From positions 1 to 48,182 of the forward strand of contig MGEK01000006.1 of NCBI GenBank assembly GCA_001791325.1: DNA of 48,182 nucleotides, in the 5' to 3' direction. Positions 25,064 to 44,743 of this stretch are shown piece after piece; position 1 is the first letter of the stretch; the number at the start of each line of letters is the position of its first letter. The DNA comes from Candidatus Uhrbacteria bacterium RIFCSPLOWO2_01_FULL_47_25. GTDB lineage: Bacteria > Patescibacteriota > Patescibacteriia > GWA2-46-9. The position numbers and the translations under genes are program-made. A model generated the notes under the pieces. That model made no database searches, was not told the DNA's origin, and saw only the letters and a list, made by a program, of their open reading frames with translations.

Positions 25064-26395
25064 ATGCCACCAGGAGAACGCGGAGGATACAACCCCGAAC
25101 AGCTTATTCCTTCGGAGCCGACACAGCCAAAGGACATTCTTGCGGAACTTGACGCACAATCAGTAGAGATCAAAAAGCGTCGTTCCTTGAAGATCACTCG
25201 TCCTTCTAATGTTCGTGGTCCTGAACGAAAAGTTGACGCTAAACGTCCCGAGCAGGAACGCAACCTCATTGTACGTTTTGAGCGTGAAGAAATATTACGT
25301 ATCTATAAATTATTACGAGAAAAAGGGGCGCACGCGGGCAAATCCTCTGAAGGGAAGCCCTCAGAATTATTAAAACGATTCCGTGAACGCGCGAAGCAGC
25401 TAGAGCGCAACCTTGACCTTTTGAGTGAACAATTATACAAGAACGTTCGTCCCGTGCAGATTGAAGACGCAGATATTGGCCAACACGTTGTTCCGGTGGC
25501 TGAGCTTTGTTTACCGGATGATCAACGCGAACGAACCGATAAGGACACTCCTTATGTTACGCTCGCTGGTATTGCGACAAATCATCACCAACAGGCCGCT
25601 CTGGCTATGGCCATGGCTTTGCAAGGGAAGCGAGTGTTCGCGATGACGCATCCAGGAAATGCTCTCGCCAAGACGCCAAAAGATTGGGCAAAACATGTTC
25701 GCCAGGATGGAACCTATCGGCTTCAGGCGAAAGTTCTTCAAGAAGCTGTGAAGAAACTTGGGCTCAAAGAGTTTCACATGGTTGGGTACTCAATGGGTGC
25801 TAGCGTTGCCCTTAAAGCAGCGCGCGATCCGGAGTTTAGCCGCGCCGCTAAAGAGATCGACCTTATTGAACCATTGGGCTTTGAAAATCTCGGGCTGGCT
25901 CGTTTGGGGTACCGCTTTTTAGGCAAAGAAACAGTTGGCGTCATGCGCGATCCCGAATCAAAGCTAAAAGCATTTTTATCGGGGAACAAGACGACCGGGC
26001 TCCCCGGCGGGCCGTTTATAGCCGATGCTTTTGCTTTGAGTAAAGAACAGTTTACAGTTAGAGAGCTCGCCGAACTCCGGCCGGAAGGGAAGTTGCGCAT
26101 CTGGACGATGAGTCAGAGTACTCTCGTGGATGTTGCCGCAGTACGAGGGAAGATTGCCGCCGCGAACGAGCTGCGCGAAGGCGCTACCGCCAATCACCCG
26201 ATAGAATTTTATACCGTCGAGGGTGATACCCATTCGACGCCACTTATCCATGCCAACGGGTTTGCAAGTATGTTGGAACATGGTCCTGGGGTTCCTTCGG
26301 GCGATGAAGTAAGTATAGCCCAGCTAGATAATTCTGCGGCGCGAGCATTATTTAGGGGGGTCGTCGACGCTGAGTCTAGGAAGGAGAGAATTTGA
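25064..26395 (+). CDS. Alpha/beta hydrolase
   Basis: Nucleophile elbow GYSMG, LIEP, late His in EGDTH. Confidence 0.75.
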   Translation: MPPGERGGYNPEQLIPSEPTQPKDILAELDAQSVEIKKRRSLKITRPSNVRGPERKVDAKRPEQERNLIVRFEREEILRIYKLLREKGAHAGKSSEGKPSELLKRFRERAKQLERNLDLLSEQLYKNVRPVQIEDADIGQHVVPVAELCLPDDQRERTDKDTPYVTLAGIATNHHQQAALAMAMALQGKRVFAMTHPGNALAKTPKDWAKHVRQDGTYRLQAKVLQEAVKKLGLKEFHMVGYSMGASVALKAARDPEFSRAAKEIDLIEPLGFENLGLARLGYRFLGKETVGVMRDPESKLKAFLSGNKTTGLPGGPFIADAFALSKEQFTVRELAELRPEGKLRIWTMSQSTLVDVAAVRGKIAAANELREGATANHPIEFYTVEGDTHSTPLIHANGFASMLEHGPGVPSGDEVSIAQLDNSAARALFRGVVDAESRKERI

Positions 26396-34744: not shown

Positions 34745-35770
34745 ATGACCAAACAAGATTTTCTCAAAACACCGGTTGAGCATATTGATTTTAAAAAAAT
34801 TGATCCAACGTATTTAGTGGAAGCGATGTCCAAGATGTCGTTTTCGTCGCGCGATTTGGCGCGGGCGGCCGATATTTACGTAAGGATGCTTAGCGAAAAA
34901 GAGAGCACTGTTATTTTAACGCTGGCCGGCTCCACCAGCGCCGCCGGTTGCATGCAGGTTTATGTTGACCTCGTGAAAAACAAGATGGTAGATGTCATCG
35001 TGGCTACAGGTGCCAGCATCGTGGATATGGATTTTTTTGAGGCTCTAGGATTTAAGCACTATATTGGCACGCCTTGGGTTGACGATAACCAATTGCGTGA
35101 GCTTCATATTGATCGCATCTATGACACGTTTATTGATGAAGATGAATTGAAAGAATGCGATATTATTATTGCTAAAATTGCCGACAGCATTGAACCAAAA
35201 CCGTATTCTTCGCGAGAATTTATTCAATTGATGGGCAAGTATCTGTCCGAGGTGGGCGCCAAAAAAAAAGATTCGCTGGTACAAGTGGCGCATGAAGCAG
35301 GAGTGCCGATTTTCTGTCCGGCTTTTTCTGATTCCAGCGCCGGCTTTGGGTTGGTGTATCATCAGTATCATCATCCGGATAAACACGTCTCCATTGATTC
35401 GGTAAAAGATTTTTTGGAATTGACTAAAATCAAGATGGCTGCGGGAACGACTGGCCTTTTAATGATTGGCGGCGGCGTGCCTAAGAATTTTGCTCAAGAC
35501 ACGGTGGTGGCCGCGGAAGTTTTGGACAAAGAAGTGCCAATGCATAAGTACGCCGTGCAGATTACTGTGGCTGATGTGCGCGACGGCGCTTGCTCCAGCT
35601 CAACCTTAAAAGAGGCGAGCTCATGGGGTAAGGTGGAAACGACTTTTGAGCAGATGGTTTATGCTGAAGCAACACTTGTGTTGCCACTCATCGCCGCTCA
35701 CGCGTACAGGAGTGGGGTTTGGCATAATCGCAAACAGCATCGTTGGGCAGATTATCTCAATAAGCAATAA
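34745..35770 (+). CDS. Deoxyhypusine synthase-like protein (probable polyamine/homospermidine synthase)
   Basis: IDRIYD, FCPAFSDSSAG, GGGVPKNF, DGACSSSTLKEASSWGK. Confidence 0.9.
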   Translation: MTKQDFLKTPVEHIDFKKIDPTYLVEAMSKMSFSSRDLARAADIYVRMLSEKESTVILTLAGSTSAAGCMQVYVDLVKNKMVDVIVATGASIVDMDFFEALGFKHYIGTPWVDDNQLRELHIDRIYDTFIDEDELKECDIIIAKIADSIEPKPYSSREFIQLMGKYLSEVGAKKKDSLVQVAHEAGVPIFCPAFSDSSAGFGLVYHQYHHPDKHVSIDSVKDFLELTKIKMAAGTTGLLMIGGGVPKNFAQDTVVAAEVLDKEVPMHKYAVQITVADVRDGACSSSTLKEASSWGKVETTFEQMVYAEATLVLPLIAAHAYRSGVWHNRKQHRWADYLNKQ

Positions 35771-35868
35771 TTAAAAGTTGCGCAAAACTTATTCTCGTGC
35801 TACACTGCTGCATATTTTGTTCTTTGATTTATATTCCGGGGTAGCTCAGTGGTAGAGCAGGTGACTGT

Positions 35869-36494
35869 GAACGTATCCGCGGTATACTTTTTATATGCCG
35901 AAACGGAGAACATATGCTGACCGTCGAGAGTACATAAAGGCGGCCGTGGCCAAGCGACGCAAGAAGATTAAAGTCATGGCTGTTGAGTACCTTGGTGGAG
36001 CGTGTCATATTTGTGGTTATAAACGCGCAATAGTAGCTCTTGATTTTCACCACTTGGATAAACATCATAAAGATTTTGCTGTTTCTCAAGATGGATTAAC
36101 AAGAGCTTGGAGTCGTGTGAGTTCAGAGTTAGATAAATGCGTTTTATTGTGCGCGAATTGTCACAGAGAAGTACATGCTGGTGTAATCGCAGCCCCGCGT
36201 AGGAATGCGCGGAGAAAAACTGGGTGAATTCGGGGAAGCCCAGCCCCACTTTTTGATAAGATGCCACCAGTAGATAAATAATTGTGTATTTATTTGCTGA
36301 CGTTAGTACTAGTCATTATCGGTTTTGTCAGAAAGTGGGGCTGGGTAATCCCGAGCCAATACCTGACGGGTAAAAGTGTCAGGAAAGGTGTAGAGACTAG
36401 CGGGTGAGTCCCAACGATAATCCCGCCACGAGCGCCCAGCGCCTAGAACAGGCGATGAGATAGTCCGTCCCTATTGGTAACAGTAGGATAAACG
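35869..36494 (+). ncRNA. Group I intron (626 nt) inserted between anticodon positions 35 and 36
   Basis: Exon ends in U and intron ends in G. IGS GCGGT (35879) pairs with ACTGT. P GAATTCGGGGAA (36226), Q AATCCCGAGC (36347), R GTAGAGACTAG (36390), S GAGATAGTCC (36457); P3 CTGGGTG/CGCCCAG; P7 GACTA/TAGTC. Confidence 0.92.
35895..36227 (+). CDS. Intron-encoded HNH homing endonuclease
   Basis: CHICGY...ALDFHH...KCVLLCANCHREVH. Confidence 0.85.
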   Translation: MPKRRTYADRREYIKAAVAKRRKKIKVMAVEYLGGACHICGYKRAIVALDFHHLDKHHKDFAVSQDGLTRAWSRVSSELDKCVLLCANCHREVHAGVIAAPRRNARRKTG

Positions 36495-36537
36495 TAATCA
36501 CTTGGTCGTGGGTTCGAGTCCCACCCCCGGAGCCATC

Positions 36538-36570
36538 AAAAAACTTCTGCCATCTCGGCAGAAGTTTTTT
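36538..36570 (+). terminator. Intrinsic terminator after tRNA-Asn
   Basis: AAAAACTTCTGCC-ATCTC-GGCAGAAGTTTTTT. Confidence 0.8.
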
Positions 36571-37050
36571 GATATTTCAGAGGTGCGGGTTGGAACTCGA
36601 ACGGGCAGAAGTGAGCGGCGATGAGTAGCGGAAGCTGCGACGAGCCAAGTGAATGTCGATAAGTCTGAGCGAGCGCAAGACTTAGCGCTGCCCAAGGCAG
36701 AGTGCGGAGTCGGTCTGCTGCCGATAAAGCACGTCGGAAGTCCCACCCCCCGAGCATTGATTGAGATCGAGTCATGAGTTTATCGAAGGGCTCGATTTCT
36801 GTTTTACTTGTCCTGAGTCTTATCGAAGGATTCACTGGGTTTTTTTGCGGTTTCCTGCCCGCCGAAGCCCTCACCTTGTCGCGAAGCCCTCGGCGAAGCG
36901 CAGGTCGGCGCAGGCGGGGAACCGAGAGTGGAGAGAGTCTCTTTTTTCTTCTCCCACGAGCCGGTAGTTGTATTATATAACTCCTTTATGTTAATATATG
37001 AACTGGAGATGACCTTTAAAGTATTTTCGGGTAACAATATTGCTAAATAT

Positions 37051-37449
37051 ATGAGTAGAAAATCTGGTTTTAAACTAACAAAAGAACACAAAAGAAGCAT
37101 AAGCGCAGGGATGAAGCGTGCTTGGGAAAAATCTGTTGGAGGGACAGGGGCAGCCTCTCTTGAGAAGTACGGATTTCTTATAAAAGACAGGAAGCAGATA
37201 AGGAAAGAGGTAATAAAAATGCTTGGTGGAAAATGTAAAAGATGCAACTTTTCTGATATTCGCGCCCTTCAAATAGATCACGTAAATGGGAATGGGAGCA
37301 AGGAAGTTAAGTCGTTTTATGGTGGAAACAAAACAATGCAGAGATATATCTTCACGGGACGACTTCCGAAAGAAAATTATCAGATTTTGTGTGCTAATTG
37401 TAACTGGATTAAGAGACACGAGAACAAAGAGTTTACGCAACCCAAGTAA
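37051..37449 (+). CDS. Free-standing HNH endonuclease
   Basis: CKRC...ALQIDHVNG...YQILCANCNWIK; basic N-terminus; ATG at 37051. Confidence 0.75.
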   Translation: MSRKSGFKLTKEHKRSISAGMKRAWEKSVGGTGAASLEKYGFLIKDRKQIRKEVIKMLGGKCKRCNFSDIRALQIDHVNGNGSKEVKSFYGGNKTMQRYIFTGRLPKENYQILCANCNWIKRHENKEFTQPK

Positions 37450-44378: not shown

Positions 44379-44743
44379 AACATCCTTATAAACTTGAGAA
44401 TGTTGGTATGATGTAGTACAATGTGAATATGGGCAAAATTAAAACTGCAAAACAAGGAGTTTGATCCTGATTAATTTGACGAAGATCCTCCTTCGTCCTG
44501 AATTTACTGAAGGACTACGGACGGGCGCAGCGAGCAACCCGCATGTGCCGACCTGCGCTTCGCCGATGGCTTCGGTCTGGCTTCGGCGGCCGGGAAAAAT
44601 ACCTTATTGCAGTTAAAGAAATTCAAACGGCCTTATATGCGGGCTAATCCTTAATTTTCGCCTATTTTTGCATAGTTTGTTAACTTTGTGCATAGATTTT
44701 ACTGCATATTGCATAGATTTTAAAGATGTAATAGGATACGGAA

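Follow-up and report, generated by a model that had tools for sequence, protein, structure and literature searches.

A group I intron with an HNH gene in its P1 loop splits the sole detectable tRNA-Asn gene of a Candidatus Uhrbacteria genome

We analyzed a 48,182-nt stretch of DNA from an ultra-small bacterium of groundwater, Candidatus Uhrbacteria bacterium RIFCSPLOWO2_01_FULL_47_25 (contig MGEK01000006.1, hereafter the window), which is contig C6 of a 1.2-Mb genome assembled in 40 contigs with a completeness estimate of 100%. The only tRNA-Asn(GUU) gene detectable in this genome is interrupted between tRNA positions 35 and 36 by a group I intron, and the intron contains an open reading frame (ORF) for an HNH endonuclease. 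We consider it very probable that this intron is a mobile element, with predicted splicing and homing and with a predicted separate transcript for the HNH gene. The anatomy of the element, its junction, its conservation and covariation, its sporadic distribution and the selection acting on its ORF are supported by the analyses described here.

Results

A tRNA-Asn gene split within its anticodon

Exon 1 (35835-35868; all features are on the forward strand unless stated otherwise) is 34 nt long and ends in GACTGT, and comprises the 5′ strand of the acceptor stem, the D arm, the 5′ strand of the anticodon stem and C32, U33, G34 and U35. Exon 2 (36495-36535; 41 nt, TAATC...GAGCCA) resumes with U36, A37 and A38 and continues through the 3′ strand of the anticodon stem, the variable loop, the T arm and the 3′ strand of the acceptor stem to G73 and a gene-encoded CCA end. 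Both exons were delimited with ARAGORN, the first from the joined exons as well as with the intron option. When the exons were joined by script, ARAGORN returned a 75-nt tRNA-Asn(gtt) with G73 and CCA, a normal tRNA with a fitting anticodon; with introns allowed, it called the unspliced DNA as tRNA-Asn(gtt) with a 626-nt intron, i(35,626). Because a one-base shift of the cut alters the product, CTGTTAATC is obtainable from no other junction.

With default settings, by contrast, ARAGORN reported a tRNA-Ser as its sole call in the window and overlooked the split gene, as the initial annotation of this DNA had anticipated. That annotation had also proposed that the unspliced gene mimics a tRNA-His; no tool made such a call here, and the tRNA-His(gtg) of the genome lies on contig C22. 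Across the whole genome, ARAGORN identified 48 other tRNA genes, which cover all of the remaining 19 amino acids, and found no further tRNA-Asn gene in the 1.2-Mb assembly. The tRNA-Asn gene was the sole split tRNA of the genome when introns were allowed, and its intron is single-copy. With a single detectable tRNA-Asn gene in the genome, splicing of the intron should therefore be essential to the host.

The fragmentation of the assembly into 40 contigs, and the frequency with which tRNA genes are overlooked in such assemblies, make it conceivable that what was found is a defunct remnant or an artefact of assembly while a working tRNA-Asn gene resides in unassembled DNA, but we give this explanation almost no weight. 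The stretch is present in metagenome runs from several studies, nine runs contain half or more of the words sampled from it, and one metagenome contig spans 35839-36411 with zero differences. Moreover, the same arrangement is found in a second genome of the genus (G001), the completeness estimate is 100%, and the exons, the core pairings and the ORF are all intact and conserved.

Contigs omitting exactly 35869-36494 were recovered at 85% likeness in all four of four metagenome runs (4, 2, 2 and 2 contigs). We rejected these as intron-minus alleles of the strain, since the skipping contigs match over 35-38 nt per side and represent the intron-less tRNA-Asn genes of other organisms.

Sporadic distribution of homologous introns in Patescibacteria

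Homologues were collected from two samples. In the first, 61 genomes of the class, mostly one per family, were searched by BLAST with the whole element and with no condition on the junction. The two exons lay apart in 10 of these genomes and were adjacent in many others, with intron-less tRNA-Asn genes in two genomes of the same family (G002 and G003; loci L016 and L022) and in further genomes of the class. All 10 interrupted loci had the ends CTGT|...G|TAA(T/C)C, and the last intron base, omega, was thus G in 10/10 homologues collected without any condition on it. In the second sample, a pattern consisting of omega-G and exon 2, which would catch all 10 class loci as judged from their printed ends, had hits in 27 genomes out of a phylum-wide sample of 401; the reversed control matched none. 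The G is part of the search pattern for these 27 loci, every one of which has an exon 1 ending in CTGT 208-626 nt upstream. The tRNA-Asn intron of the window is therefore one of many copies in Patescibacteria, not a rarity.

The combined set comprises 36 distinct introns of 197-626 nt, 20 with a long P1 loop that contains an ORF and 16 without an ORF. Most of the 20 P1-loop ORFs are intact HNH genes, and signs of decay are visible in others: the CxxC motif at locus L039 carries a Cys-to-Arg change, and some ORF-less introns are of intermediate length. The window intron is the longest of the 36, owing to its P5 arm. At least two core types can be distinguished, a short type (L011, L027, L052 and L053) with nothing between P7 and the 3′ strand of P3 (P3′), and a larger type, including the window intron, with one or two hairpins at that position.

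Separately, the search encountered tRNA-Phe(GAA) genes of the class that are split after U33 (33/34) by ORF-less group I introns of ~216-278 nt, at loci L005, L006, L009, L010 and L029 (genomes G009, G007, G015, G060 and G052). Their cores share 77-81% identity with the window intron over ~80-140 nt (BLAST). The genome's own tRNA-Phe gene is free of introns.

Anatomy and covariation of the intron

The intron occupies 35869-36494 of the window (626 nt, GAACG...AAACG), as delimited with Rfam and ARAGORN. The Rfam Intron_gpI model (RF00028) matched 36133-36487 with 69.8 bits against a gathering score of 50 (E-value 8.6e-16), and this match, together with the ARAGORN call on the joined exons, bears out the initial annotation of a group I intron at tRNA-Asn 35/36 whose removal restores GTT. 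The Rfam alignment pushed the P1/P2 columns onto ORF sequence at 36133-36180, whereas homologues place the true 3′ strand of P1 at GCAG, 36189-36192.

The 5′ strand of P1 (35865-35870), composed of CUGU from the exon and GA from the intron, pairs with the internal guide sequence UCGCAG (36187-36192), which forms the 3′ strand and whose GCAG is aligned in all 36 introns. The 5′ splice site lies directly after U35 (35868), where U35 stands opposite G in a U·G pair. The guide sequence lies 320 nt downstream of the end of exon 1, and P1 spans a 310-nt loop. In every intron the guide GCAG was set according to where it aligns 5′ of P2 and P3, and pairs were counted afterwards; automatic picks, based either on the best P1 extension or on the most stable downstream hairpin, were dropped after they chose a GCAG of the core in several introns. 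The pair between the first intron base and the guide (+1:-1′) is kept in 36/36 introns (G-C in 24, A-T in 7, G-T in 3 and C-G in 2), and the second intron base is paired in 22. The universal +1:-1′ pairing therefore fixes the 5′ splice site independently of the argument from the tRNA.

Downstream of P1, the intron contains a P2 hairpin with a GGAA loop (36195-36212; pairs 12-17/22-28 in RNAalifold, where 9 to 16 of the 26 sequences show compensatory changes) and then the 5′ strand of P3, CUGGGUG (36220-36226), which pairs with the 3′ strand CGCCCAG (36433-36439) and shows covariation at 3 of its 7 pairs. P4 and an extended P5 (36231-36352) are closed by pairing of 36231-36247 with 36337-36352, as found by Rfam, RNAalifold and folding; the P5 arm (36238-36346, 109 nt) has a folding energy of -54.4 kcal/mol and includes an extension of ~90 nt that the relatives in the 26-core alignment lack. 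P6/P6a (36353-36389) precedes the R element, GTAGAGACTA (GUAGAGACUA), which forms the 5′ strand of P7 (36390-36399) and is invariant in 26/26 aligned cores. An extra hairpin at the P7.1/P7.2 position (36400-36426; 27 nt, -10.3 kcal/mol) separates P7 from P3′. P8 (36440-36454; covariation at 4 of 5 pairs), the S element GAGATAGTCC (GAGAUAGUCC), which is the 3′ strand of P7 (36457-36466), and a P9 hairpin with a GUAA loop (36470-36487; covariation at 6 of 7 pairs) complete the fold, with omega-G (36494) as the last intron base, immediately 5′ of the 3′ splice site. The assignments of P3, P6/P6a and the S element derive from the Rfam alignment, with RNAalifold in agreement for P3′, P6/P6a and S, and the P and Q elements read AATTCGGGGAA and AATCCCGAGCC. 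The P/Q/R/S core, the U·G splice-site pair and the terminal G thus lie where they had initially been placed.

RNAalifold was run on an alignment of 26 cores reaching from the guide sequence to exon 2, in which the row for locus L035 includes a masked N. It predicted 40 pairs, 26 of them with compensatory double changes, distributed over P2, P3, P4, P5, P6, P8 and P9. Together, the Rfam E-value and the covariation in 26 to 36 homologous introns place the group I intron call beyond chance.

The HNH gene and its conservation

The HNH ORF (35895-36227; 110 codons plus stop, identified from the ORF list and PHROG) starts 26 nt into the intron and hence lies within the P1 loop. Its last 13 codons (98-110) double as the guide sequence, as P2 and as the 5′ strand of P3, and its TGA stop (36225-36227) falls at the 3′ end of that strand, consistent with the start and the overlap with the core that had been read from the sequence earlier. 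The protein matched PHROG 2255 ('HNH endonuclease', E-value 3.4e-29) and PHROG 3106 (2.5e-25), and in the PDB the HNH portion of a maturase from a group II intron (6me0, E-value 0.0018) and McrA (6ghc, 0.012). The motif is intact in translation (CHIC...DFHH...CANCH...H), with both CxxC pairs, the HH and the N...H residues. Database searches returned 2567 homologues at an E-value of 0.001 or below, mostly unnamed; the few with names belong to Uhrbacteria or Patescibacteria.

The same-genus genome G001 has an identical gene order, deoxyhypusine synthase followed by tRNA-Asn with intron and HNH gene. The two HNH proteins share 86 of 110 residues, with proportions of nonsynonymous (pN) and synonymous (pS) differences of 0.175 and 0.71 and a ratio of nonsynonymous to synonymous substitution (dN/dS) of 0.087; within the 13 codons that overlap the ribozyme, pS falls to 0.175. 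The neighbouring deoxyhypusine synthase gene has a pS of 0.60 and a pN of 0.052. Given the shared synteny and an HNH pS similar to that of the neighbour, the intron and its ORF look as old as the species split, and the substitution pattern suggests that purifying selection has acted on the HNH gene since the two species separated.

One account of this conservation is that the intron is genuine but needs a protein helper for efficient splicing, with the HNH protein acting as a maturase too, or with a host factor in that role. The low dN/dS, over a divergence that has brought synonymous sites close to saturation and at a locus that descended vertically together with the adjoining gene, would agree with such a role, as would a retention of the HNH gene that outlasts expectation for a purely selfish endonuclease in a fixed intron and the requirement that P1 form across a 310-nt loop. 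Yet 16 of the 36 homologous introns are ORF-less and nevertheless keep all core pairings and intact-looking exons, and a helper encoded in cis is therefore not generally required; to our knowledge, maturase activity has not been established for HNH enzymes. We therefore regard a helper requirement as unlikely.

The HNH family is associated with split tRNA-Asn genes

A protein scan with one genome per species yielded 163 relatives of the HNH protein, for which 80 loci were kept and placed by ARAGORN with introns allowed and by reading of the printed ends. Sixty-eight lie inside tRNA-Asn genes split at CTGT|...G|TAA (35/36), with a G at position 39 in 27 of them, and six are free-standing genes beside a tRNA-Asn gene that has an intron at the same site (L060, L074, L085, L129, L090 and L138); the remaining six are interrupted by contig ends. 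Although the initial annotation had singled out the endonuclease-bearing copy as notable, an ORF in the P1 loop is thus commonplace, being present in 20 of 36 introns, with 68 of 80 HNH homologues located in such introns. The records come mainly from Patescibacteria lineages. A few are labelled Omnitrophota, one of these a 1.28-Mb chromosome-level metagenome-assembled genome, and further records bear the labels Planctomycetes, Nitrospiria or Proteobacteria; a number of these may be mis-binned.

The closest phage relatives (~52% identity) are free-standing HNH genes within tRNA clusters, as judged from the two records examined out of 118 that matched. The HNH gene of Vibrio phage PC-Liy1 ends 4 nt before a tRNA-Asn gene, and that of Felix O1 abuts a tRNA-Ile gene; no DNA similarity between the ribozyme and phage records was found. 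The move of a free-standing endonuclease gene into an ORF-less intron has been proposed for phage introns, and the series of loci seen here is what would be expected if a free-standing, tRNA-targeting nuclease gene had entered an ORF-less intron.

It is also conceivable that the HNH gene no longer serves homing and has been retained or domesticated as a passenger, for instance as a nuclease directed against competing DNA, in an intron that is fixed and vertically inherited in the genus. Both sampled species of the genus have the intron and the ORF in the same synteny, with an HNH pS of 0.71 against 0.60 for the neighbour, and the DNA immediately downstream contains a free-standing, distantly related HNH gene as well as a defence-type island. 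However, 74 of the 80 HNH loci lie in or beside a tRNA-Asn gene split at 35/36, and the other six end at contig edges; the intron is patchy, with 10 of the 61 class genomes carrying it and intron-less genes occurring within the family, and some ORFs are degenerating, as in the Cys-to-Arg change at L039. A single target, patchiness and degenerating ORFs together form a pattern of continuing gain and loss, and we accordingly judge a passenger role improbable. A mobile intron with a homing HNH endonuclease remains our preferred reading.

The second, free-standing HNH gene in the window (37009-37449, in a frame open from 36928) lies 470 nt downstream of the tRNA. It shares 29% identity with the intron HNH protein over 77 residues (E-value 5e-6) and belongs to the same PHROG families, and it has an N-terminal KEHKRSISAGMKRAW stretch, which we take to resemble a NUMOD3-type DNA-binding motif. 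We rejected this gene as a regular partner of tRNA-Asn, having found it in 2 of 61 relatives with the window's own genome counted.

A putative promoter inside the intron

A -10-like box, GGTATACT (35881-35888), consists of GG followed by TATACT (35883-35888) and ends 6 nt short of the ATG of the HNH gene. A promoter scan paired this hexamer with a -35-like GTGACT in the anticodon arm of exon 1 (GTGACT-16-TATACT, 35861-35888); with a 9/12 match, in a scan that returned an excess of sites, the GTGACT site was given no weight alone. We compared 80 distinct HNH leaders, scoring hexamers that agree with TATAAT at five or more of the six positions and end 4-12 nt before the ATG. Such a box was present in 58 of the 80, compared to 7.8 ± 2.6 (maximum 17) in 1000 shuffles, although the leaders are related and the count thus overstates their independence; the TGnTAnnnT form occurred in 42. 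This enrichment suggests an internal promoter that would yield a nearly leaderless HNH mRNA devoid of the 5′ splice site, thereby uncoupling synthesis of the enzyme from maturation of the tRNA.

Each of the 20 long-P1-loop introns has its ORF stop 13-199 nt beyond the start of the guide sequence, and completing translation would therefore unwind P1 and P2. Because the guide sequence, P2 and P3 (5′ strand) of the window intron are read as the last 13 codons, a folded ribozyme and a ribosome at the end of the ORF would be mutually exclusive on any one RNA.

These features raise the possibility, which we advance only tentatively, that HNH gene and ribozyme are interlocked as a single unit and the gene is no passenger in a loop, with its own extended -10 promoter, a nearly leaderless mRNA without the 5′ splice site, mutually exclusive translation and splicing, and a protein that selection has maintained for at least the time since one species split. 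If so, the selection would imply ongoing homing in populations or a second role, such as aiding formation of the long-range P1, and the arrangement would be a defined architecture, so far undescribed, that tRNA-Asn introns share throughout Patescibacteria and possibly in Omnitrophota.

Relation to known introns

The initial annotation referred to reports of Asn/Asp 35/36 introns in Patescibacteria, of which our literature search found none by name; the nearest work is that of Williams 2020 (bioRxiv 10.1101/2020.01.27.920355). That study screened 80,413 bacterial genomes and described 21 tRNA/site intron classes, 17 of them new, with 0.49 split tRNA genes per genome in metagenomic assemblies of unnamed phyla, and observed that introns above ~400 bp may contain genes. 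Like its classes, the window intron sits in a 7-nt anticodon loop, has U at -1 and ends in an omega-G, and like them it is found by Rfam Intron_gpI and the ARAGORN intron option. In the nomenclature of Williams 2020 the element would be 'Asn.4Ug', a name not found in the searchable literature; Asn is not named in the running text of that study, which names its classes in Table 1/Figure 3. Given the 80,413 genomes screened and the frequency of the class here, Asn.4Ug is likely among the 17 new classes. The text of Williams 2020 does not contain the HNH gene, the P1-loop placement or the guide-sequence overlap seen in the window intron, and among the searchable papers we found none describing the HNH gene of tRNA-Asn introns, its placement in the P1 loop or the guide overlap. 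Matches in the literature on group I introns in tRNA-Asn were mitochondrial or plastid.

The classical bacterial tRNA introns reside in Leu, fMet, Ile2 and Arg genes, all belong to subgroup IC3 and are self-splicing, according to Williams 2020 and Hausner et al. 2014 (PMC3984707). The window intron resembles them in its anticodon-loop position, in a P1 built from the anticodon loop and stem, and in being compact and patchily distributed. It differs in its site, Asn 35/36, whereas the Leu intron follows position 34 and the others lie at positions 2 or 5 on the scale of Williams. The window intron and most relatives of its type have one or two extra hairpins between P7 and P3′, unlike the four short relatives. 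Hairpins at this position are a trait of subgroup IA, not of IC3.

One classical tRNA intron bears an endonuclease, namely the tRNA-fMet intron of Synechocystis PCC 6803 with I-Ssp6803I (Bonocora and Shub 2001, cited in PMC3984707). It differs from the window intron, whose enzyme is of the HNH type, in enzyme family, tRNA and site, and the Asn/HNH combination is far more widespread, with 68 of 80 kept loci. I-Ssp6803I is an enzyme of the PD-(D/E)XK type. [quoted passage not shown] These share the HNH motif class with the window enzyme but are found in introns of protein-coding genes, while the phage relatives of the window HNH protein were found outside introns.

The host lineage and the general kind of element are shared with group I introns that carry homing endonucleases and interrupt rRNA genes in the Candidate Phyla Radiation (CPR; Tsurumaki et al. 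2024, PMC11270868), though the host gene differs. The 16S rRNA gene of the present genome, on contig C19 (~25730-26365; L002:1237-1868), has an interruption of ~630 nt that begins after GCTAACTCTGTG and ends where the gene resumes at CCAGCAGC. Its match to the group I intron model is weak, at 34.2 bits and under the cut-off; we read it as a second group I intron, unrelated in sequence to that of the tRNA-Asn gene. Such interruptions are a known habit of CPR rRNA genes.

Surroundings of the tRNA-Asn gene and other features

Directly 3′ of the tRNA, a hairpin between an A run and a T run (36538-36570) reads from the sequence as terminator-like; it is not among the terminators listed by a terminator scan of the region. 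An inverted partial copy of the tRNA-Asn 3′ end lies downstream (arms 36512-36551 / 36557-36596, 73% complementary), as do a 19-nt inverted copy of the end of the deoxyhypusine synthase gene (35683-35701 / 36611-36629, 95%) and a direct copy of the tRNA 3′ end from which the T arm is deleted (36733-36756). These three degenerate copies (36576-36629 and 36733-36756) look like scars of earlier insertion or recombination at tRNA-Asn.

Further downstream, inverted repeats (36827-36918 / 44538-44597; 37 nt at 92% and 19 nt at 89%) flank a 7.7-kb block in which the second HNH gene is accompanied by an AbiEi/AbiEii pair, a DUF4325 gene, RadC, a MazG-like gene, a gene for a SWIM-finger protein and a reverse-transcriptase-like ORF with a weak RVT_1 match. 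The block looks like a defence-type variable island next to a tRNA and is possibly mobile or invertible. Between 43585 and 46251, four copies of a ~58-nt repeat with the core AACATCCTTATAAACTTGAGAATGT stand upstream of small regulator-like genes, and two of the copies extend to 77 nt at 97% identity. Elsewhere in the genome, ARAGORN called a 93-nt 'tRNA-Pyl(cta)' (C25:8551-8643, minus strand), possibly falsely, and a tRNA-Ile(tat) (C32:11253-11328); the genome has two tRNA(cat) genes.

Discussion

The sequence evidence supports a model in which a precursor tRNA would be made and its intron would fold, with P1 formed by CUGU|GA and UCGCAG, followed by P2 to P9 with the long P5 arm and the extra hairpin. 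Free guanosine would then attack after U35, omega-G (36494) would dock, and the exons would be ligated to CUGU-UAAUC, restoring the GUU anticodon. The 110-residue HNH protein would act as a homing endonuclease that cuts intron-less tRNA-Asn genes near the anticodon, whereupon repair would copy the intron in, and it would be produced not from the precursor tRNA but from a separate, nearly leaderless transcript begun inside the intron. In this scheme we infer splicing activity, target cleavage and the internal promoter; the element itself is well preserved, carries its HNH gene and is probably active.

Several observations weigh against this model. No RNA sequencing run containing the stretch was found, so that splicing and the ligated junction are deduced, and a second tRNA-Asn gene may sit in DNA missing from the 40-contig assembly. 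P7 is without variation in the 26 cores and thus uninformative for covariation, and the Pfam HNH match of the ORF, at 17.2 bits, falls below the cut-off of 21.4. As for the promoter, the window match is weak, at 9/12, in a scan that gave 6 sites against 1.8 expected, and the comparison of leaders draws on related sequences. Lastly, an HNH gene that has stayed intact since the species split misfits the simple model in which an endonuclease decays once its intron is fixed.

These findings leave the current understanding of group I introns unchanged, and their interest lies mainly in an annotation trap and in the putative promoter and dual-coding layout. Standard tRNA finders overlook the split gene, such that genomes appear to be without tRNA-Asn; this affects ~7% of the sampled Patescibacteria (27/401) and 16% of the class (10/61). 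The loci also provide a natural series for the union of endonuclease and intron and for its decay, from HNH genes beside ORF-less introns, through HNH genes in the P1 loop and degenerating ORFs, to introns that are ORF-less. For the organisms themselves, the intron means that an essential, single-copy tRNA would rely on a ribozyme in the setting of a very small genome.

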